Shown here: piece by piece, positions 32,347 through 50,059 of the stretch | Layout: the number at the start of each line of letters is the position of its first letter | Numbering within the stretch: position 1 is the stretch's first letter | Virus record (IMG/VR): IMGVR_UViG_3300047548_001372 | Coordinates: 1-64,000 of that record | DNA: 64,000 nucleotides | Direction: 5' to 3' (one strand) | DNA from: a virus | The notes under the pieces: model-generated | Databases searched by the model: none | What the model saw: only the letters and a program-made list of their open reading frames with translations | Told to the model about the DNA's origin: nothing | Position numbers and translations under genes: made by a program

Positions 32347-35300
32347 CTAAACACAATAGCTAATAGTTGCTTCAAGAATATTAGCAACAAATCCAGTCGC
32401 CATATCTGCTGGTGCAAGAACAAGAGTATCTCCGTCAGCTGTATTTCTAAAGTACAGATTTGCGTATTTTGTATTTGGTTGCACTGCAATTGCGCTTGGT
32501 CGATCGTCGGCAAAGTCTACTGATCGTGCAATAGATCCTGCTGCACTGGCATTAAGCACGTTTGCTGCTGTAAAAGGTAATCCTTCAACACATACTGTTC
32601 CTGAAGCACTGCCTATTGTCATAGCAGAAGTAGAAAGTACAAACCAGGCAGTAACCATATTACCAATTTTGGTATATCTACCGTATCTAATCGCGTATGT
32701 TACTGATGTAAAATTAGTTCCAGTAGTTGTGTATGTTGGTGTCCAATTACCTTCTTCATAATCAACAAGCACTTTTGATGTCATTCCAATAGCACCGCTA
32801 TTACTGGAAAAATCAATACCATTTCCAGATGAAAATGACACATTATTTGTTACAATAGAAACTGGTGCACTAATGATAAAATTGTCTGACCATAACCTAA
32901 CCTCATTATCAGCAGTCATCCATAAATCTTCTGCATCTAGCCTCAAAGTATAAGTAGAGCGTATGTCAATTTCTTGTGGAAAAAATGTTGAACCACTTAC
33001 ATATGCTGGTGTAGCAGTAATTTCTCCGATTTGTACAATATTATTTGATTCATAAAATGAAATACGATTAAACCTACCACCCGCAACTTCTATAAATCGT
33101 ATCTCATCATTCTCCATACGAATACCTGCGCTAGCAGTTGTAATTACTGCATTTGTAGCAAACAAAGTACCGTCAGCTTCTACACGGAATGGTGCGGTGT
33201 TTGGATCTACGTTACCAGCATAAATACGCCATGTGTTACCTCTGATAAGTGCACCATTTTCATCAATCAGATCATTAGTACCATCTGTTACAACTCCAGC
33301 AGATCCGTTTAGTGCTGCAATTGAATTGTCGCTACCAGCGGTGATTGTTGTTGCTGATGAAATACGATCACCAGTAATAGTACCTGCTTGAATCTGTAAT
33401 GCAGTAATACTACCAGTAGTAATCTTACCCCCACTAATAGTAGTAACGTTAGCATTAACATCGGCAGCAGCTCCACCAGTGGTAATTTTAGTGCTTGGAT
33501 CATAACTTGCCGCAAACGTAACATCACCATCTATTGTAATTCTATTTCCAGCAATACGAATACCTTCTGTTGATGCGTTAATAGAAGTTACTACATTACC
33601 AGTTTGTACAGGGGTGAAGTTAAGATTTGTTACGGTGATAGTATTTACATCTATCTCATCACCAGTAATGCTTCTTGCAGATATTTGCGCAGCGCTGATT
33701 GTTTTTGCTGCAATGTTAATAGCTTTAATTGATTCTGCTTCAATATCATCTGACTGCACTAACCTGCGTGGATAGAACTCTGCTATGGTGTAATTGCTTG
33801 TTGTGTTTCTATGATAGAGCCGCACAAAACGAGCCTCCACAATAACTGGTAAATCCCAGCGTGTGGTTAAACTTGCTGAGCTAGCACTAATCGCATTACT
33901 TGCTGCCGCGGGTTGATCTGGTTGTTCAGTGAGTGTTGCTCCAGCAGCGCTTACATTTATTAAATCTCCAGCAAACCACCTCCAATTACTACCATCAATA
34001 GATGTAGCAAAATAAAATTGTGTATTTGTTGGACTAAATAATCCAGCAGTAATGGTACGATAGCGCTCTAAAAGAGCCCTACTCATTTGAGTCCAGCGAT
34101 ATGTTGAACCTACTGTATACGCTACTTCAGGAGATGTAAGATTGTTATCTGCTAGTACTTGTTTTAGTTGTTGATCTGGTGTTGGTGGTGTAAGGCTGTC
34201 GGTGTATTTTGCTTCAGCGCGCAACTCTTCAAGTGTTAGTGCATCCGCAATTGCGATGTTGCTTGATGTTTCAGCAGATGTTCTGCCAAACACATCAACT
34301 TCAGCAACATGCACTTGATATGATCCATCAGTAATAATTGCAACAGAATAAATACTTTGAGGAATAAGTGCATTGTAATTACTACCTGTTTCATACCCTA
34401 ATTGCTGTGCTGGAGAGCTGCTATCAAGAAGAATATTTGAACTATCTGTTAAAACAGTAATTGCTGATGGATCAGTTGTTGTAGTACCGCCAATAGTTAC
34501 TCGATATTGATAAAACTCAGTAAATACAGTACGTGTATGTGCAACTGTTGCAGTTAGCACATCAAAATACACTTGCAGTGTAACTGCATCTGGTTGTGTA
34601 GGTGCTGGTGCTGTAGCACTTGCAGTAGCAGCTGATGTGGATATTTGTCCTAGCGCATCAATTGCCCATAACTCAACATTCAGCGTTGCATCCGCTGCAC
34701 CACTATGTTCGATCCTGTTTTGTGCTAGTGTATACACATACCTATTTGTGTATCCTATCTCTCTAGAAAGATTATCTACCTCCATCCTGTAACCGACTAC
34801 ACTTGTTGAGACAGTCCAATTGACAACCAAGTCTGGTGCAGTAAAGTTTAACGTTAAATTTTCTGGTTGTGCAGGAGGGCTTAACGTAGCAGTTCCAGTT
34901 ACCGCAGTAGGTGATACTCTGCCCAAACCATTCACACCTACAATATTCCATGATAATGTAGGATCAGCAGTAGTGTTATGTTCTGCGCGGTTTTGATCAA
35001 GTGTATAGGTATAGGATGTACCAGTAACGGTGCGGGCTACATTGTCAATTGTCAAACGATAGCTAGTAGTATTTGCGAGAGGATCCCATTTCCATGTACA
35101 CTCACCAGTTGCACCATTCCAAGTAGCACTTACATTCTGTACTGTTCCAGGATCATTCAGTGTAGCGGTATCTGATGTAGCGGTAGTAGATACTTGACCG
35201 AAAGCATCAACACCAACGATATTCCATGATAATACATTATCTGCTGTACCGTTGTGCTCTGATGCGTTCTGTTGAACACTGTAGGTATAGGTAGTGCTGT

Positions 35301-36183
35301 ATACATCTCTGGTGATGTTATCAATAGTGAGTCTATAGTAACTTGCCCGCGCAGCAGCATTCCAGCGCCATGTTGCACTGCCTGTAACAAAATCAAATGT
35401 AGGAGATCCAGCTACCAATGTAACATTTGCAGGAGTACTAAGCGTTGTAGTTAGGTTGACAGGAGTGCTATAAACGGTACCACTTGAAGCCCAACTACGT
35501 GCTTCAAGGATAACGTAGACTGATGGATCACCTCCCGTAGAATCACTTATATTTTGTGCGCGAGTATAGATATATGATTGACCACTAACAAACACTGTTC
35601 TGTAAAGTGTAGTTTGTGCGGAACTGTTAAATATACGTAGCCTCACATCACGAAAGTTTACATCAGTAGGATTAGTCCAGGTAATAGTAAGATCACCAGT
35701 AAGACTATCCCATGTACCAGCGGGTGAACTTACTGGTGCTGTTGCAACTGCATCATCTTCGCTCTCTATTTGTACGGTGTCTGTCCATTGGCTAACGACG
35801 TTTCTATGCACAGCCCGCACACGAAAACGATAAAATGTTTTTAGCCCAACAGAAATGGTAGCAGCAATATTATACGAAATTACACGCTGTGGATCAGAGA
35901 ATGTTTTTGTCGTATTGTTCCATTCACTACTTCTACCATACTCAATTTCATAGTAGGTTGGAACAATTCCTACAGGAGAACGCCATGTAAGATTGATGTA
36001 TGCTTCAGGTTTTACTGGAGACCGCGCAATACCACCATTTGCTGCTTGTAGGTTTGTTGGTTTTGCAATATTTCCTACTGGTGGTGGTACAACAGTCACG
36101 GACTGACTACGTAATGATCCACCGCCAGTTATATCTGGTTTTGTATCAATGATACGTACGGTATCTTTTTTTGATCTTGGCAT
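32347..36183 (-). CDS. central tail fibre / host-specificity protein
   Basis: 1278 aa with FN3-like repeats, a galactose-binding-like domain, I.a..Ita..I fibre repeats and a DYEEG.WT tip domain. Confidence 0.85.
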   Translation of the reverse strand: MPRSKKDTVRIIDTKPDITGGGSLRSQSVTVVPPPVGNIAKPTNLQAANGGIARSPVKPEAYINLTWRSPVGIVPTYYEIEYGRSSEWNNTTKTFSDPQRVISYNIAATISVGLKTFYRFRVRAVHRNVVSQWTDTVQIESEDDAVATAPVSSPAGTWDSLTGDLTITWTNPTDVNFRDVRLRIFNSSAQTTLYRTVFVSGQSYIYTRAQNISDSTGGDPSVYVILEARSWASSGTVYSTPVNLTTTLSTPANVTLVAGSPTFDFVTGSATWRWNAAARASYYRLTIDNITRDVYSTTYTYSVQQNASEHNGTADNVLSWNIVGVDAFGQVSTTATSDTATLNDPGTVQNVSATWNGATGECTWKWDPLANTTSYRLTIDNVARTVTGTSYTYTLDQNRAEHNTTADPTLSWNIVGVNGLGRVSPTAVTGTATLSPPAQPENLTLNFTAPDLVVNWTVSTSVVGYRMEVDNLSREIGYTNRYVYTLAQNRIEHSGAADATLNVELWAIDALGQISTSAATASATAPAPTQPDAVTLQVYFDVLTATVAHTRTVFTEFYQYRVTIGGTTTTDPSAITVLTDSSNILLDSSSPAQQLGYETGSNYNALIPQSIYSVAIITDGSYQVHVAEVDVFGRTSAETSSNIAIADALTLEELRAEAKYTDSLTPPTPDQQLKQVLADNNLTSPEVAYTVGSTYRWTQMSRALLERYRTITAGLFSPTNTQFYFATSIDGSNWRWFAGDLINVSAAGATLTEQPDQPAAASNAISASSASLTTRWDLPVIVEARFVRLYHRNTTSNYTIAEFYPRRLVQSDDIEAESIKAINIAAKTISAAQISARSITGDEIDVNTITVTNLNFTPVQTGNVVTSINASTEGIRIAGNRITIDGDVTFAASYDPSTKITTGGAAADVNANVTTISGGKITTGSITALQIQAGTITGDRISSATTITAGSDNSIAALNGSAGVVTDGTNDLIDENGALIRGNTWRIYAGNVDPNTAPFRVEADGTLFATNAVITTASAGIRMENDEIRFIEVAGGRFNRISFYESNNIVQIGEITATPAYVSGSTFFPQEIDIRSTYTLRLDAEDLWMTADNEVRLWSDNFIISAPVSIVTNNVSFSSGNGIDFSSNSGAIGMTSKVLVDYEEGNWTPTYTTTGTNFTSVTYAIRYGRYTKIGNMVTAWFVLSTSAMTIGSASGTVCVEGLPFTAANVLNASAAGSIARSVDFADDRPSAIAVQPNTKYANLYFRNTADGDTLVLAPADMATGFVANILEATISYCV

Positions 36184-39743: not shown

Positions 39744-41657
39744 TTATCTTGAAACAATCTGAGGAGCAGGCATACGAATCTTACCAATAGCATCTACTGT
39801 TGTTCCTGCACTATCGTATACTGCGGTAATAACTTCAGCTAGTTTATTTTCTAGCCGCGCACCAATAGTCTGTAGTGTTGCAGTAAGTACACGATCGTGT
39901 ACTTCAGATAGTGCTTGCATTGATGTTACCGCAGTAGGGGTTGCGTTTGATGGCGCTACTGCTGAAGGTTGTGGGGCTTGAATAACAACATTTGGTGTGT
40001 CAATCTTCAACTCTGGTACTGTATACTCAGTAGCAGCAGGAGCTGTTGGTGTTTCTGGTGCTAATGCTGGTGGTGCCGAATTAGTCGTAATTCCTACTGC
40101 TTTATTTGCTGCATCCTTACCAAGCAATTTATAAATATCATAGTAAAGATCTAATTGCTTTTGTAGCAGTTGATTTTCTTCACCAATAACTTTCTTTGAT
40201 CGTTCAGCAGCAGTAATTTTTGCATCAGCTTGATCCTTTGCGGCAGTAGCAATTTTCTGCGTTTGCTCTCCATATTGCTTTGCTTCTTCAGCAAGTTGAT
40301 CGGCAAGCTCTGTCTGGTTTTTATCTCCGCCCTCCATAAGTTGCTTCAGCTCTTCAGCTTGTGCATCTTCAAGCAGCTTTTTAATACCTTGTAGATATTC
40401 TAGCTTTGCTTGCTTTGTTGTTTCTGGAAGATCCTTATCTGTGCGCACATCAGCCATTTCTTTTTCAAGATCAATCATCTCATTTAATTGATCTTGGCGC
40501 AGATCAAGAAACTCTTTTGAAAGTGCTGCTTTGCCTTCTTGTGCAATGCGCTGTGCTTCTAGAAAGATTTGCTCATATTGCGCGGAAAAGGTAGTAACAT
40601 CAATACCCTCTACATTAGTAAGTGATTGATAGAAGGATGCTCTACTACGTCGTTTATCACGTTCGTTGGTTTGTTCTGCTTCTTTCTGTTTCCGCGCAAA
40701 CTCTTTCTGGATATCCAACACATTTTGTTGGTATTCCTTCTCAGCATCCTCCATATCGCTATAAAACTCTGTGCGAATATCAGAAAGCTCATAAAGTAAC
40801 TTTTCCAGCTCGGTTACTTGCCCTTCCTTTGTAGCAGTACTACCACCCCCACCACCAGTACCCGCACGCTCTCGTGCTAGTTGTTCTTCTAGTTGTTTAA
40901 TTTGGCTAAGCGTTGACCAGTACTCTTTGTTGCTTGTAGTTAATCCTTGTAGCTTTGTGTTTAGTGATGCAATTTTACCAGCAGTACCTAATAAGCTAAA
41001 CTCATAATCAGCTTGTGCCTCTGCTGCATCAGCTGTTGCTTTTGCTGTATCTTCTAAAACAGTTGCGTACTCCTCCATCTGCGAGCCAATAGCCGCCCAA
41101 TCAAGAGACTCCAAACCACCAAACATGTCTACTGCACTTTCTGTAATAAGCGTTTGTAGTTTATCTGCACCCCCTTCAACTTCACCAGCAATATTTCTTG
41201 CGCTTACTTGAGCTTGCCAATTTTTTACTTGTTTAAGTGCATTTACAAGCAAAAGAGCATCAGCTTTTGCAATACCAAAGTTTGATCCCATAAGTGCAGC
41301 AGCTTCAGCAGTGCTTATTAGTCCAGAAGCAGCCATCTGTGCAATTTCTGCGAGGGTATTTTGTGCTTCGGAAAGCAGTGCTGTTTCAGCGCTAGCAACA
41401 ATTGTTGCGGAAGCATTTTCGTTTGCTTTGGTAGTAAGTTCTTGAAGTTTTATCCCTGCTTGAGCCATAGCGCTAACAGAATCATTGAGGGCTTGACGGC
41501 GGTTTTCTTCTCCTACAATAAGCGATTGAATTGATGCGTATGCTTGTTGCTCGGTTACAATACCAGAGTTCATTGCATCTACGTAATTTAAAATACCTGT
41601 ACTAATTTCTGGATATTTATTAATTAATCCTTGAATATAAACTTTCTCCTTGATCAA
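39744..41657 (-). CDS. tape measure protein, C-terminal part
   Basis: long Ala/Gln-rich helical ORF; overlaps the upstream half in the +1 frame; no good canonical start. Confidence 0.75.
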   Translation of the reverse strand: MIKEKVYIQGLINKYPEISTGILNYVDAMNSGIVTEQQAYASIQSLIVGEENRRQALNDSVSAMAQAGIKLQELTTKANENASATIVASAETALLSEAQNTLAEIAQMAASGLISTAEAAALMGSNFGIAKADALLLVNALKQVKNWQAQVSARNIAGEVEGGADKLQTLITESAVDMFGGLESLDWAAIGSQMEEYATVLEDTAKATADAAEAQADYEFSLLGTAGKIASLNTKLQGLTTSNKEYWSTLSQIKQLEEQLARERAGTGGGGGSTATKEGQVTELEKLLYELSDIRTEFYSDMEDAEKEYQQNVLDIQKEFARKQKEAEQTNERDKRRSRASFYQSLTNVEGIDVTTFSAQYEQIFLEAQRIAQEGKAALSKEFLDLRQDQLNEMIDLEKEMADVRTDKDLPETTKQAKLEYLQGIKKLLEDAQAEELKQLMEGGDKNQTELADQLAEEAKQYGEQTQKIATAAKDQADAKITAAERSKKVIGEENQLLQKQLDLYYDIYKLLGKDAANKAVGITTNSAPPALAPETPTAPAATEYTVPELKIDTPNVVIQAPQPSAVAPSNATPTAVTSMQALSEVHDRVLTATLQTIGARLENKLAEVITAVYDSAGTTVDAIGKIRMPAPQIVSR

Positions 41658-43407
41658 GTTGAAATTTATCTATATCTTTAATACGATTAGAAAGATCGTC
41701 AATAGATAAACGGTACCTCTGCGCAAACTCTGCGGCTTGGTCAAAAGACATACCAGATTTTACAAGACTTTCTAAAACTCTATATTGAGCATCTGTAAAC
41801 ATACCTATATCTTCATCAAATGCTTGCAGCTGCCATCGGGCTTTATAAATATTGTTAGAATATTGTTGATATGCACCACCAGCTTCAATAGCAGCTTTTG
41901 CTGCGTTAAGGTTTGCAGTTTGCAGCTCAACAGTACGTTTTTCTAAAGCGTTTACCCTATCTAAAAGGTAGTCTGCTACCCCTCTAAAAGCAAAATCAGC
42001 AGCTCCTGCAGCAGGACGAGCTAGTTCTGCACTTAACCTACCAAATGCAGCAATTGTATCGTTAAAAGATCCAACAAGTTTATCATATGTAGTAGCGGCG
42101 AGCTGTGTTTTTTGATCAAGGATTTGCATCCCAATACCCATATCTTCTAACAACACATCAAGCCCTTCCAGACGTTCTATTTCCGACCCTAATGCTTTGA
42201 TACTATTAAGAGAGCTTCTACTAATTTCAAAGCGTCGTGAAAGTGACTGAATATCGCCGCTGAAAAATTCTTTTAATGCTACTGATGCACCTTTCATACC
42301 CTGAGCAGGATCAATAATAGCTAACCTACGAGCTGTGTTTGCTAAACGATCTACTGCAATACCAGTCTGATTTGAAACATAAATAAAACCTGAAAGATCT
42401 TCAAGATTTTCCTGCAAACTACCGCCATACAACTCTTGTTGATTACGAGCAGCTTGCATAATATCATTAAATCTTGCCTGTGACTTACTTAACGCTTCAA
42501 CAGTGCTTGTAATTTTTTCGAGCTCATTACCAGCAGTAATAACTGCTCCAATGTTTGTAAATACTGCATTAAGTGCATATGCTGCACCAACATATGAATT
42601 TAAACCTTTTACTAATGCAAATAATGTACCATTTAATCTACGTGAATCGGAGTCTGTTTGTTTCTGGTAACGCGCAAGTTGTGCTTGTGCGTTTGACCAT
42701 TGAATTGTTTTAGTAATAACATCTCCAAACTCTTTTTCAAGAGTATTAAGAGATGCTTGTAAATTATTTATAGCTTGAGCATGATTCTTTGCCGCTGCTT
42801 GCGCTCGTGCATCTGCCTGGGCTTTTTGTAAAATAGCTACCGCAGATTTTTGAACTTCCTGTTTTACACGTTCTTCAGCTTGTTTACGTTTATTTAATAC
42901 AGAGCTTTGTTGTTTTTCTAAGTCAATAATTTTTGCAATTATACCTTTATACTGAGCAAGAGTATTGTTGGAGTTTAATAATTCTATTTTTAACTTAGTG
43001 AGTGATGCCGAAAATTGATTTGTACCAATTGCAAGTTTTGCGTTAGCAACTGCTAGATCAATAGCTGCTTGCCTAGATGCTTGTAGTGTTGCTTGATAAA
43101 GCGCAGAGTATTTTGCTCCTGTAATTGTTTTATCAGTAAATTGCTCTGAGTTTTTCGTCAATATACCCATTGCATTGTTTAATTGACCAGCAGCAGCACG
43201 CTGCTTTACAATAGCACTAATATACGCTAGGTTGGCAGCTTTTGCACGTTCTTGTATAGCTTGCTGTCTGTCTAGGTTTTGCGTAAGTATCTGCGCTCCT
43301 TGAGCAGCCTGCTGCATAGCTTGTGATGCCTCACGCATCACTTGACCAAGTCCTACGTCTTTACCAGAAATAGTTACCTGAACTGTTCCTAAATCGGCTG
43401 TTGTCAT
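41620..43407 (-). CDS. tape measure protein, N-terminal part
   Basis: MTTADLGTVQVTISGKD start, coiled coils, and tape-measure-like ALKEFFSGD..SL..RF. Confidence 0.85.
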   Translation of the reverse strand: MTTADLGTVQVTISGKDVGLGQVMREASQAMQQAAQGAQILTQNLDRQQAIQERAKAANLAYISAIVKQRAAAGQLNNAMGILTKNSEQFTDKTITGAKYSALYQATLQASRQAAIDLAVANAKLAIGTNQFSASLTKLKIELLNSNNTLAQYKGIIAKIIDLEKQQSSVLNKRKQAEERVKQEVQKSAVAILQKAQADARAQAAAKNHAQAINNLQASLNTLEKEFGDVITKTIQWSNAQAQLARYQKQTDSDSRRLNGTLFALVKGLNSYVGAAYALNAVFTNIGAVITAGNELEKITSTVEALSKSQARFNDIMQAARNQQELYGGSLQENLEDLSGFIYVSNQTGIAVDRLANTARRLAIIDPAQGMKGASVALKEFFSGDIQSLSRRFEISRSSLNSIKALGSEIERLEGLDVLLEDMGIGMQILDQKTQLAATTYDKLVGSFNDTIAAFGRLSAELARPAAGAADFAFRGVADYLLDRVNALEKRTVELQTANLNAAKAAIEAGGAYQQYSNNIYKARWQLQAFDEDIGMFTDAQYRVLESLVKSGMSFDQAAEFAQRYRLSIDDLSNRIKDIDKFQLDQGESLYSRIN

Positions 43408-44326: not shown

Positions 44327-44731
44327 TTACGCAATAGTAAAGTTGCCGTTAGCCATAAAATCAGCGCTAATGCTGGTTGTTTCACCAGCATCTTGACCAA
44401 GAGTTAGCGATGTAATTAGTCCGCTTGGTACAGTAATAGTGTATCCACCAGTAGTTGTTAATACAAGCTTCACATAGGTTGATCCTGTAGCGTTTGTTAC
44501 AAGCAATGTTTGACCTGCATTTTTACCAGAAGGAACTACACCATCAAATGATCCATTCAGCGATACAGCAGTGTTGTATGTATACATAGCACCACCGTCA
44601 TTGATAAATGGGCCAATTGTCTGATTGTCATTTTCTACACTTACTTCCCAAGAACTAATCCAGCCAACTGGAGTATCTGATGCCCCAATGGTAATAGTTC
44701 CAGCAAACCCACGAATAGGAGTACCGCTCAT
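44327..44731 (-). CDS. major tail tube protein
   Basis: 134 aa beta-rich protein; vG.I.sW.v, sl.GsfdG; followed by terminator and chaperone. Confidence 0.8.
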   Translation of the reverse strand: MSGTPIRGFAGTITIGASDTPVGWISSWEVSVENDNQTIGPFINDGGAMYTYNTAVSLNGSFDGVVPSGKNAGQTLLVTNATGSTYVKLVLTTTGGYTITVPSGLITSLTLGQDAGETTSISADFMANGNFTIA

Positions 44732-44746
44732 AGTTACCTCTTTGTA

Positions 44747-46102
44747 TTATAGCACACTAAACGCATCATTTGAAACAAAATCTGCACTAATCGTAGCCGT
44801 CTCACTGGAGTCTTGACTTAGTGTGACTGAAGATAATAGGCATTGTGGAACACTTATTGTATAGCCATTTGTTGTTTCTAATGTTAAAGATAGATATGTT
44901 GAGCTAAGTGCACCACTTACAACTAGTGTTTGACCAGCATCTTTATTTGAAGGAATAACACCATCAAAAGAACCAGTCAATGACTTTGATGTTTTATAAA
45001 TATAGGATGTTCCGTTATCGTTAATAAATGGCCCTAGTGTCTGTGTATCGCTCTCAATAGAACCTTCCCAAGAACTAATCCAACCTACTAACGAGTTTCT
45101 ATTTGAATAAAATGTGCCGATTGTATAACTTACTGGTGAATAATGATGCACTCTAATATATCTAGCTTGCTTTTCGCTAGGAAAGTTAAACTTTTCTACT
45201 TGTAGCACGCTCAAATCTACAGCATTAGAATCGACAAGAAGAACTGGCTGTGCTTGTGCAGCAGCCTCACTTGCATAGCTTGTAAGAGAGAGTACATTAC
45301 CAAAATCAGCAATCGGATTAAATTCTGCTAAAAAACTACCATCAACAGTGTTTTGATGTAAAACTCTAATATATTTTACTGGCACATTATCATATTCAAT
45401 GTTCCATCGAATAGTATTTGCATAACTACCAGCAGTTACCGACTGAGTACGAGCATTGGTTTCGTTTGTCTGTTCAGTAAGCGTAGCAATGCTGGTAGTG
45501 ACAGTAGTTACCGGCCCAGAAAACCAACGCCAAGCTACACCATCTGCTGATAGTGCAATGTAAAACTTCGTAGCAGAAGCACCCTGAGATCCAATTTTCA
45601 TCAATACGCTGTTACATACTTTTGCTTCTGTAAGTTCAACCTGAGTCCATCTCCATCCAGCATCAGCTGTATAAGGTACTGCATAATCAGTACCGCCTGT
45701 TAATTGATAGGTATTATCTCGAAGAACAGAGAGTGTTGCTGTGCTGCTACTAATACTATCAGTATAGGTAAATGTGTTTGGAATAGAGAAAAAATCCCAG
45801 TTTGTGTTATCAGTTGATGTTGAAAAATATACAAAAATTGGTTTTTGATAATCAACATCTCCAATAGTTACTGATTGATAACCTTGAGTATTAGAACCAG
45901 CAACAGTTGTAGATCGGTAAATACCACCAGTACCAGGTGTAAAACCAGCTGATGTGTATGTGGCAACTGAGGATGGATCGTTGTCTCGCAGTACTGTTAG
46001 CAGGGATGGTGTTGTTGATACACTATCTGTATATGTTAGTAACGGAACTGCGTTATCTAACGTTATTCTACCAGCAAACCCACGAATAGGAGTACCGCTC
46101 AT
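44747..46102 (-). CDS. tail-tube paralogue with nested carbohydrate-binding-like insertions
   Basis: N-terminal MSGTPIRGFAG and the last ~113 aa align with 44327..44731; ~320-aa insert between them. Confidence 0.8.
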   Translation of the reverse strand: MSGTPIRGFAGRITLDNAVPLLTYTDSVSTTPSLLTVLRDNDPSSVATYTSAGFTPGTGGIYRSTTVAGSNTQGYQSVTIGDVDYQKPIFVYFSTSTDNTNWDFFSIPNTFTYTDSISSSTATLSVLRDNTYQLTGGTDYAVPYTADAGWRWTQVELTEAKVCNSVLMKIGSQGASATKFYIALSADGVAWRWFSGPVTTVTTSIATLTEQTNETNARTQSVTAGSYANTIRWNIEYDNVPVKYIRVLHQNTVDGSFLAEFNPIADFGNVLSLTSYASEAAAQAQPVLLVDSNAVDLSVLQVEKFNFPSEKQARYIRVHHYSPVSYTIGTFYSNRNSLVGWISSWEGSIESDTQTLGPFINDNGTSYIYKTSKSLTGSFDGVIPSNKDAGQTLVVSGALSSTYLSLTLETTNGYTISVPQCLLSSVTLSQDSSETATISADFVSNDAFSVL

Positions 46103-48061: not shown

Positions 48062-48805
48062 TTAGTGTGTGAGCTTTAGCACACCAATGCCTTCGGGATC
48101 ATCAACCATCATACCGTATGCCTGCCAGCAATGCAGCACATAGTTAGGTGGTTGAGTAGAAGGATCGGTGTAATCCTGAAACTCTGTTGCCCCGTAAAGA
48201 GCAATGATGCCAGGATTATCAGCAATAATCAGCACCTTGTCATCAGGGATAAGACGATCAGCGCGAAGATTACCGCTGTACGCATTTGCAGGTAGCAGGT
48301 TACGTGTTACCTGTGGTAGTTCGATAACAGGAATACCCGTGTAGCGAGTAACCTTGCGAGTGTTGGTAAACTCATTAAACGCAGACTCAATAGGAAATGC
48401 TACTGCATCCGTGTTGCTGCCGTTTAGCTCAAACTCACGAAACTGACCAAAGGTGTACATTGGTCGAAGAGCCTTGCGCGTACCCATAATAGCACGAACG
48501 TTCTGACCATTATCCAGCATACTTTCAATCATTGTATCCAGAGGAGTCTGGGTAAGAGGGCCAGCAAGATCCTCATAGTTGTTTGGCGTATCGCTTTCGT
48601 TCCAAGTCGTGGTAAGCAGGTTAAACACTTTGCTTACCAGATTGTCGAAAATATCAGCGCGAAGATCATTGCGCATCTGAGCAACACTACCAACTTCGCC
48701 CGAGTTAACTTCCCAGAGTGAGTGAGAAGTACCGGCGATAAGACGATCAAACACAAACGTATACTTGTCTACGAATGATGTCTGATCAGTGAGATGCTTT
48801 GAACC
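48062..48805 (-). CDS. major capsid protein, exon 2
   Basis: begins GSKHL after the intron's terminal G; Y.G.PV.ELP capsid-like motif. Confidence 0.8.
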   Translation of the reverse strand, partial: GSKHLTDQTSFVDKYTFVFDRLIAGTSHSLWEVNSGEVGSVAQMRNDLRADIFDNLVSKVFNLLTTTWNESDTPNNYEDLAGPLTQTPLDTMIESMLDNGQNVRAIMGTRKALRPMYTFGQFREFELNGSNTDAVAFPIESAFNEFTNTRKVTRYTGIPVIELPQVTRNLLPANAYSGNLRADRLIPDDKVLIIADNPGIIALYGATEFQDYTDPSTQPPNYVLHCWQAYGMMVDDPEGIGVLKLTH

Positions 48806-49831
48806 CAAAGATGTTCTGAATATATCGTTAAATATATTCCTTCCTATCACTAGGAAGATCAGACTATATCATCATCTCTTCGTATAGAAGAGAGCCTAAC
48901 ACGCGGTATGGTTATCTCTTGTGTTTACGGCTTCCCGCGCAGCGGTTTCGCGAAGAGCTTTTCGTTCCTTTAACCGATTGTACACGATAGTTTTATCAAC
49001 TTTATACGTAAAACTTGGTTGTACAAATGGAGTGACAATATCAAGCATGCGATCCACATCTTTTGTTGACAATTGCAGATAGTATAACAATGAACCAACT
49101 TTTGAACGATACTGCTTGACGTTCCAGTCTAAGTTAAACTTCTCTTTTAATGCACTGCGTAGTAACATTTGTTCTGCATAGCAGAATGATTCAGTGGAAA
49201 GTGCAATTTCATGACGAAAGGTATCTTTTCGGAATGATCCACTATGCCATCCATCTTGTACAAACCAGATAGCAAGAAACTCTGCATCTAGTAATGTAAG
49301 ATGATGTGGATCAATAACTTTACGTCCGATAGGATACATTCTCTCACGAAAGTTTGTGTAGAATGGATGATGTCGTGATCGTATGCGTATAGTTGGTTTG
49401 ATTGTTTTTGTTGCTGTTTTTACACCAGCCCGCACATCGTAACGAATACTTGTGATGTGTGATAAGCGATCTGCAATATAATCTAAATGATCAAGATGCT
49501 CTGATGTTTGTCCAAGTTCAAATCCGCTGTTTTCCTTATTCTTGCACGCAGTAACGTGCGCGTCTCCAAATAAACAAGCAGCTACAATCTTTGTAAGCTC
49601 TTTTCTATTTGGTGTAATGATAAGTGGTGCTTGAGTAACCACCTTCCTTGGTAGATTGACAGTAAGAACCTCTGTTTCTACTTCTTGTTCTAAACATACC
49701 ATAGTCGTTGCTCTTCTCCATCAGGAGTAAGATCAGGATTGTCAACAAAATACATAAATATTGTTGATGTTCCCTGAGTTCTGTTAGGTGAAACATACAG
49801 TATCACTACTGTACGGCCCAGTTCAGCAGCT
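48806..49831 (-). ncRNA. group I intron in the major capsid protein gene
   Basis: P1 GCCU|AG...CUGGGC with U.G at the splice site; P7 GACUA(49706-49702)/UAGUC(48866-48862); ends in G; removal restores the frame MVP|GSK. Confidence 0.88.
48896..49702 (-). CDS. intron-encoded LAGLIDADG homing endonuclease
   Basis: IVAACLFGDAHV and FLAIWFVQDG motifs; HPFYT..RERMY. Confidence 0.9.
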   Translation of the reverse strand: MVCLEQEVETEVLTVNLPRKVVTQAPLIITPNRKELTKIVAACLFGDAHVTACKNKENSGFELGQTSEHLDHLDYIADRLSHITSIRYDVRAGVKTATKTIKPTIRIRSRHHPFYTNFRERMYPIGRKVIDPHHLTLLDAEFLAIWFVQDGWHSGSFRKDTFRHEIALSTESFCYAEQMLLRSALKEKFNLDWNVKQYRSKVGSLLYYLQLSTKDVDRMLDIVTPFVQPSFTYKVDKTIVYNRLKERKALRETAAREAVNTRDNHTAC

Positions 49832-50059
49832 AGGCACCATCGTGCGAACAGGATACATACCACGACGAACACGGCGAGCAATTTCATCACCAGGAGCAAT
49901 AGTCATGGTGGGCATGAAAGAACTAAACAGATCAAGCGTGAGCTTGTTTGGCTGAATAACGTCCATCATCACTTCTGCATAGCTACTGCGACGGTTAGGG
50001 GCATTACCAGCACCGCGTGCATGTTCCGCAAGTGCCTTGATATATTTCTCTTCTAGCAT
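49832..50059 (-). CDS. major capsid protein, exon 1
   Basis: likely start MLEEK (GGAG RBS); 76 codons ending in CCT; spliced product ~323 aa. Confidence 0.8.

Follow-up and report, generated by a model that had tools for sequence, protein, structure and literature searches.

A putative tail-tube paralogue carrying a CBM32-like domain nested in a copy of itself

The tube paralogue and its nested insert

Here we describe a protein of 451 amino acids (aa) in which a domain, called X in what follows, sits inside a copy of itself, which in turn sits inside a sequence related to phage tail tube (major tail) proteins. The gene lies in the first 64 kb (64,000 nucleotides (nt), the window throughout this text) of an 85,328-bp record of an uncultured virus (IMG/VR IMGVR_UViG_3300047548_001372), within a structural module of the long-tailed-phage type that the minus strand carries from about 52 kb to 31 kb. 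The open reading frame (ORF) of a plain tube protein of 134 aa begins 15 bases downstream of it. Shine-Dalgarno motifs precede both tube genes, and GAGGAG stands immediately 5′ of the ATG of the 451-aa gene. The features concerned, with their hidden Markov model (HMM) matches, are the following:

44747..46102, minus strand, stop codon included: gene of the 451-aa tube paralogue (P0001), from the ORF list and its translation
46040..46102, minus strand: tube N-terminal strand, aa 1-21, with aa 1-11 and the initial 32 nt the same as in the 134-aa tube
45773..46036, minus strand: first part of the outer X (aa 23-110), matching X profile positions 10-91 (35.6 bits, 4.5e-13)
45314..45769, minus strand: inner X, complete, aa 112-263, X profile positions 10-153 (95.3 bits, 1.9e-31)
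45098..45304, minus strand: second part of the outer X (aa 267-335), matching X profile positions 93-155, with the ARYIRV strand (29.8 bits, 2.8e-11)
44750..45094, minus strand: tube body, aa 337-451, tube HMM positions 17-130 (4.9e-40)
44327..44731, minus strand: gene of the 134-aa tail tube (major tail) protein (P0002), of a family whose members match Phage_tail_2, Phage_tube_2 and PHROG major-tail families
33748..34236, minus strand: single in-line X, aa 650-812 of the 1278-aa central fibre, whose gene spans 32347..36183 (1.1e-63)

The X profile was built from 26 X domains, namely that of the fibre of the window and those of 25 database fibres, the 451-aa protein having been left out. The two outer pieces that it finds have 1 of its 160 columns in common, and they are complementary around a complete inner X; read from the sequence, this is a nested insertion of the A1-B1-C-B2-A2 type. 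Pairwise Smith-Waterman comparison with the fibre X gave Z-scores of 34 for the inner copy, 10.2 for the outer N-terminal piece and 9.1 for the outer C-terminal piece, the score being reached by none of 300 shuffles, and the inner X resembles the outer C-terminal piece weakly (Z 3.5, with 2/300 shuffles reaching the score). The three copies are mutually 29-34% identical. Across the whole 85-kb record X occurs once in the fibre and otherwise only in the 451-aa protein.

The tube parts were delimited with a tube-family HMM made from 28 relatives. It falls on the 451-aa protein in two pieces, positions 17-130 on aa 337-450 (4.9e-40) and positions 2-16 on aa 3-17, the latter being a weak match when taken alone (independent E-value, iE, of 17). 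Therefore an insert of about 320 residues separates tube positions 16 and 17; it measures 315-325 residues and would occupy the turn after the first tube strand. Residues 1-11 are identical between the two proteins, and aa 22-133 of the shorter align with aa 339-450 of the longer at 61.6% identity (E 2e-48). Over the 85-kb record the tube profile is present only in these two genes. The 451-aa ORF would consequently be a tandem duplicate of a tail-tube gene in which the tube fold elements appear to be kept.

A layout of tube start, first half of X, whole X, second half of X and rest of the tube had been proposed in a sequence-only reading of this DNA, together with an N-terminus identical to that of the plain tube and an intact third X in the central fibre. 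The split matches of both profiles, the eleven shared residues and the fibre domain at aa 650-812 agree with that proposal in each respect, and its residue ranges were correct within about 4 residues.

The assignment to tail tube proteins was approached through the families PF06199 (Phage_tail_2), PF18906 (Phage_tube_2), PHROG 1407 and PHROG 820. When 28 members of the tube family were scanned, 9 matched PHROG 1407, 'major tail protein' (best 4.6e-8), 13 matched PHROG 290, 4 matched Phage_tail_2 and 3 Phage_tube_2. Three of these members, P0032, P0036 and P0040, match PHROG 1407 nearly over their full length (2e-7, 3e-7 and 4.6e-8, respectively), and they are directly retrieved by the 451-aa protein from a library of 1.84 billion proteins. 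It is via such intermediates only that the tube proteins of the window appear homologous to recognised major tail proteins. A sequence search of the PDB with the tube profile returned nothing below E 0.07.

The start regions of the two tube genes deserve a separate mention. Their first 32 bases, counted from the exact ATG, are identical (46071-46102 and 44700-44731, both on the minus strand), and the tube bodies are 61.7% identical with third codon positions agreeing at 44 of 113. At those rates the chance of ten identical third positions is about 8e-5, a value suggestive of either gene conversion or constraint in the start region.

Fold of the inner domain and the predicted outer domain

Modelled by AlphaFold2 with an alignment of 40 rows, the inner X adopts a beta-sandwich with a mean predicted local distance difference test score (pLDDT) of 87.8 and a predicted template modelling score (pTM) of 0.85. 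The leading PDB matches of this model in Foldseek are all carbohydrate-binding modules of family 32 (CBM32), factor V/VIII C domains (F5/8C) or N-domains of galactose oxidase; the best is 5zu6, a CBM32 (E 7e-5), and 16 matches reach E ≤ 0.001. VIA-align, in turn, placed 289 of 994 chains at Z ≥ 8, with nearly all of the 50 listed belonging to this fold class, and its best match, 4a42_A (CBM32), was superposed at Z 12.9 with a root-mean-square deviation of 2.5 Å over 121 of 127 residues. The model thus has the same beta-sandwich as CBM32-6 of the Clostridium perfringens GH89 enzyme (4a42), at an identity of 12%; across the VIA-align rows, the identity of X to the structures matched is 8-23%. 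Matches in a viral structure library include phage F5/8C proteins and minor tail proteins of Gordonia phages. Inner X is therefore predicted to have the eight-stranded beta-sandwich fold of CBM32 and F5/8 type C (discoidin) domains. That X is a discoidin or galactose-binding-like module, as had been proposed from the letters of the DNA, is borne out by the AlphaFold2 model, Foldseek and VIA-align alike.

CBM32 and F5/8 type C domains bind sugars at a site in their apical loops and often bind calcium too. Near the C-terminus of X runs a strand of the ARY[IV]R type. Two further searches bear on the fibres and on X: that of the PDB with the fibre alignment gave FN3 matches only, outside X, and in the ESM Atlas, which has the sequence but no model of it, feature matches (0.85) to viral F5/8C clusters lay below the trustworthy level.

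The point at which the outer X is interrupted corresponds, in the model of inner X, to a five-residue turn between the strands at model residues 84-92 and 98-104. The hairpin that links strands five and six would consequently be the place where the outer X is broken. The two pieces, aa 12-111 and aa 262-338, were predicted together as a two-chain complex, with a separate alignment to the fibre X family for either piece. The interface score ipSAE (interaction prediction score from aligned errors) was 0.71, 0.72 and 0.62 in three runs, the best of 3 controls giving 0.02; about 300 contacts were predicted, with a partner pLDDT of 65-74 and a contact agreement between runs of at least 80%. The mark used for this complex score is reached by 116 of 157 solved complexes and by 2 of 215 mismatched pairs, a calibration that is rough only, since custom alignments were used here. 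The tightest predicted contacts join aa 90-96 to aa 315-321 and aa 104-105 to aa 276; these would be the strands that flank the break and their central sheet partners, as expected in one sandwich. Altogether, the prediction supports the view that the outer halves re-form one sandwich domain, and the earlier suggestion that they do so stands as a prediction.

In discoidin domains both termini lie at one end and the ligand "spikes" at the other. Given this topology, the expected place of the broken hairpin is the ligand end, and the inner X would stand on the tip of the outer one.

For the modelling of the full-length protein, a joint alignment of tube and X sequences was tried and rejected: MAFFT aligned either fibres or X segments with the tube part, and put the N-termini of the tubes at aa 320-338.

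Variants, relatives and genomic surroundings

The same protein is encoded on two other metagenome contigs. P0003 is 98% identical to it over its full length, and P0004, which covers aa 168-451, is 93% identical. Between P0004 and the protein of the window the tube part shows no difference in 113 residues, and the insert shows 19 in 171 (Fisher p 4.8e-5); in P0003 the figures are 1/113 and 8/317, a difference that is not significant. The tube part of the paralogue is under constraint. Among the changes within inner X, 5 of 14 sit in the hairpin equivalent to the site at which the outer X is interrupted.

When the 451-aa protein was searched against the 1.84 billion proteins, 32 matches were obtained, of which 22 are of 53-148 aa, 9 are long and X-bearing and one is a fragment of the same protein. 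No further fusion of tube and X was present among these 32, the combination being seen in this phage lineage alone, and each of 26 long X proteins carries exactly one significant X, in line. The 17 related loci, with 14 distinct tube sequences and, in 11 loci, at least 2 kb upstream, have one tube gene each, with no second tube match and no X adjoining it; wherever the flank is long enough, X is found in the fibre 8-10 kb downstream. Taken together, the other 31 matches and the related loci present plain tubes of 94-148 aa and a single in-line X in each fibre. Neither the 451-aa protein, nor the 134-aa protein, nor 12 kb of the DNA found a match in 50,697 GenBank phage records. Pattern matches to the 451-aa protein in viral contigs numbered 7, with none confirmed, and those to the tube alignment in genome contigs numbered 54, again with none confirmed; the genome contigs therefore yielded no prophage relative.

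In the tree, the tube part of the paralogue groups with P0002, P0005 and P0006 (Shimodaira-Hasegawa-like approximate likelihood ratio test, SH-aLRT, 99), on a branch of 0.35 as against 0.06-0.16 for its sisters. The tube duplication would therefore be recent relative to the family. In the X tree the two tube-borne copies come together with an SH-aLRT of 39, on long branches of 0.77 and 1.06 compared with a median of 0.27. They are 34% and 30% identical to the X of their own fibre, which is for neither of them the closest one, and the own fibre X is 55-58% identical to those of other fibres.

Both the tube gene and the fibre X are interrupted in some relatives. In relative L006 (9016-10276) the tube gene is split at tube-profile position 39/40 by an insert of about 870 bases that encodes a LAGLIDADG_2 endonuclease (2.4e-21). 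In L024 (1063-2833) and L025 (1640-2908) a break at profile position 39 divides the fibre X between two frames, and extra partial X sequence stands between these: in L024 this copy lies on the opposite strand (profile 67-156, iE 1.4e-4), and that of L025 is another N-terminal piece (profile 3-35, iE 2e-6). Such broken domains could be the result of a mobile insert or of a switching cassette.

As for the surroundings, the order of ORF sizes runs from completion-like genes through the tube, two small ORFs and long tape-measure-like ORFs to tip proteins and the fibre. It fits that of siphophages, where the tube gene is placed after the head-tail completion and terminator genes and before a chaperone pair and the tape measure. 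The same order is seen in relatives L004, L005 and L007; the neighbours have no family match and are named from their position. The tape-measure-like region of the window (39744-43407, minus strand) consists of two long ORFs of 595 and 637 aa, overlapping at 41620-41657, neither of which matches a family. Further upstream, a capsid-like gene (48074-50035, minus strand) is split, with 50035-49826 corresponding to residues 9-78 of a 325-aa ORF of a relative and 48805-48074 to its residues 77-322; the gap of about 1 kb carries a LAGLIDADG_2 endonuclease ORF at 48896..49702 (Pfam 1e-25). This gap looks like an intron because a stop follows the first piece, but Rfam gave no group I match. Scans for Rfam families and for tRNAs gave no matches. 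Relatives L004 (6084-8756) and L005 (7691-9184) have, between head and tail genes, a large ORF of 891 and 498 aa, respectively, which is without a Pfam match; the window has no ORF of such size at that position.

Proposed role and comparison with known systems

Taking the architecture and the inner fold together with the predicted outer domain, we infer the assembly, orientation, binding and stoichiometry of the protein as follows. The 451-aa protein would polymerise with the 134-aa tube protein, or replace it. Its insert would face outwards; the outer X would serve as a spacer and the inner X would form the tip, and this tip would bind a polysaccharide of the host surface weakly and reversibly, raising adsorption, by analogy with the lectin modules of lactococcal tail tubes. 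It seems to us reasonably probable that the protein is such a tube subunit, co-assembling with the plain one and presenting a lectin-type domain on a lectin-derived stalk for weak, reversible binding of host polysaccharide.

Several observations weigh against this reading. The inner X scores 18.7 bits against PF00754 (F5_F8_type_C), below the Pfam gathering cut-off of 28.2, and only 5 of 29 scanned X members, inner X among them, match this family at E ≤ 0.1, the best at 0.002; because of this score X is called here CBM32-like in fold and not a member of PF00754. The two tube proteins of the window match no Pfam family directly, and PHROG 290 only weakly (E 0.014). AlphaFold2 run on the full-length 451-aa protein without an alignment gave a pLDDT of 33, an unusable model. 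The success of the two-chain prediction may reflect likeness to solved single-chain CBM32 folds. Finally, the paralogue alters 2 of the 9 covered conserved columns of the tube family, Gly to Asp and Thr to Ser, the Gly being located near the C-terminus and invariant in all 28 members.

How the subunit would be deployed in the virion allows more than one answer. The same architecture might serve a single specialised ring, next to the terminator or at the tail tip, and form one collar of six lectin stalks. Such a placement would fit the position of the paralogue gene between a terminator-like gene and the tube gene, the paralogue branch being longer than those of its sisters (0.35 versus 0.06-0.16), and the loss of the invariant Gly, which could change the stacking of rings; nevertheless, the 61.6% identity to the tube and the identical N-terminal strand favour interchangeable packing, and we hold the single ring to be rather unlikely. 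It is less probable still that the duplicate is not part of the virion at all, being either a copy in decay or a soluble protein that acts as lectin or decoy and happens to retain a tube-like end. Related phages do manage without it, with one tube gene in each of the 17 related loci, and two conserved tube-family positions are changed, but the frame is intact over 451 codons and preceded by a ribosome-binding site, the same architecture is retained in P0003 and P0004, and it is precisely the tube part that is most conserved between variants (0/113 against 19/171, p 4.8e-5).

Two other explanations would do away with the nest itself. The order N-N-C-C is, taken alone, also compatible with a tandem pair with swapped halves, in which the first N pairs with the first C and the second N with the second C. 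However, a hairpin turn of five residues connects the middle N to the middle C, the two giving one confident domain in the model, the inner piece scores as a unit (95 bits), and the outer pieces, equally diverged from the fibre family, are predicted to pack together; such a pairing appears highly improbable. Since the record is a metagenome-derived virus contig, a chimeric assembly might also have produced the repeated X. With copies that are 29-34% identical no assembler would collapse or duplicate them, and the same protein recurs, 98% and 93% identical, on independent contigs; on both counts an assembly artefact can be considered excluded for practical purposes.

Returning to a subunit that co-assembles with the plain tube protein, the self-insertion could be imagined as a length-setting device. 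The outer X, having lost its sugar site, would be a rigid spacer that lifts the inner X by about two domain lengths; co-assembly in a set ratio or position would produce a brush of lectin stalks along the tail, or a collar-like arrangement, with a reach tunable by the number of nest levels. The outer sugar site would have been given up because its apical hairpin is occupied. If this were true, the 32 identical 5′ bases would mark an ongoing gene conversion that keeps the subunits compatible. We regard the proposal as speculative and rather unlikely.

Decorations of the tail tube are thought to mediate the weak and reversible contacts by which phages first engage glycans of the cell surface. 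Duplication of the tube gene followed by loop insertion would be a third genetic means of decorating part of a tube, the other two being extension by frameshift and fusion within the only tube gene. The tube paralogue opens no long-standing question. Rather, it offers a clean two-level case of a lectin domain inside a member of its own family, in a tail-tube-type protein and with plain-tube relatives for comparison, and thereby a test case for the tolerance of the tube lattice to large loop inserts, for whether a host lectin domain stays functional once split and, from an engineering perspective, for where a tube subunit can take cargo.

The decoration of tail tubes is in itself well documented. 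SPP1 gp17.1* carries a C-terminal Ig-like (immunoglobulin-like)/FN3 decoration on tube subunits, and Ig/FN3 tube decorations are non-essential surface domains thought to aid adsorption. Lambda gpV and T5 pb6 likewise have C-terminal Ig-like/FN3 decorations (lambda and T5 are named in PMC11445458). These three proteins have a single C-terminal Ig/FN3 domain, whereas here a nested lectin pair is inserted in a loop of a paralogue. The lactococcal 936-group (Skunavirus) protein TpeX is a C-terminal tube extension made by frameshift from the one tube gene, with a BppA-like module whose GFP fusions bind host cells specifically (PMC6669499). Like TpeX, the module of which is ancillary to host binding, the present system would place a carbohydrate-binding-type module on some tube subunits beside plain ones. 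It differs in having a paralogous gene of its own, with the insertion in a loop close to the N-terminus, and in the insert being CBM32-like in fold and present as one copy nested in another (PMC6669499). The protein does not follow the frameshift-extension pattern of SPP1 gp17.1* and 936 TpeX, as its insert is internal and in one open frame, and its gene is separate, with its own start and ribosome-binding site.

Internal insertions also have precedents. The major tail protein of the Pseudomonas phage JBD30, gp44, has, in its solved structure, a decoration domain at residues 88-175, inside the tube beta-sandwich and flanked by core segments, that protrudes from the disc (PMC11445458). The extra domain is internal to the tube protein in both cases; in JBD30 it is a single Ig-like domain after the peripheral helix of the sole tube protein, every subunit being decorated, while here it is a second tube gene that is interrupted, and the turn behind its first strand holds a nested pair of lectin-type domains (PMC11445458). 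In siphophages of lactic acid bacteria, evoDit proteins bear a carbohydrate-binding module internal to a tail ring protein, which aids host binding (PMC6669499). They resemble the present case in the internal insertion of a binding-type module in a tail ring-type protein, and differ from it in that the module is carried by Dit, a tail-tip protein, instead of a tube subunit, with one insertion level and a BppA-like fold (PMC6669499). Two major tail protein genes have been annotated in Gordonia phages of cluster DJ (PMC10652937).

Nested insertions of the A1-B1-C-B2-A2 type have been described outside phage tails, including a six-level recursion within the same family in Si3 of the cyanobacterial RNA polymerase beta′ subunit (PMC13114784). 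There, too, a domain lies in a loop of a homologous domain that is itself an insert in a host domain; Si3 is built from the hybrid motif/HABAS fold, in an unrelated, cellular context and with up to six levels, and the present protein has two lectin-fold levels in a tail-tube-type protein (PMC13114784).

The sequence-only reading had presented the architecture as unlike the usual C-terminal Ig fusions or frameshift extensions. This holds insofar as the insertion is internal, in frame and in a separate gene; the contrast with Ig fusions was overstated, as internal decoration (PMC11445458) and same-family nests (PMC13114784) have been published. In open-access text nothing on phage tubes was found under nested domain insertion, and no loop-decorated tube paralogue was described among the matches listed. 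Tube proteins decorated with lectins, decoration domains at internal sites and nested insertions are each known already, and what is new is their combination in a separate paralogue that is interrupted at its first hairpin by a CBM32-like domain holding a second copy of itself.

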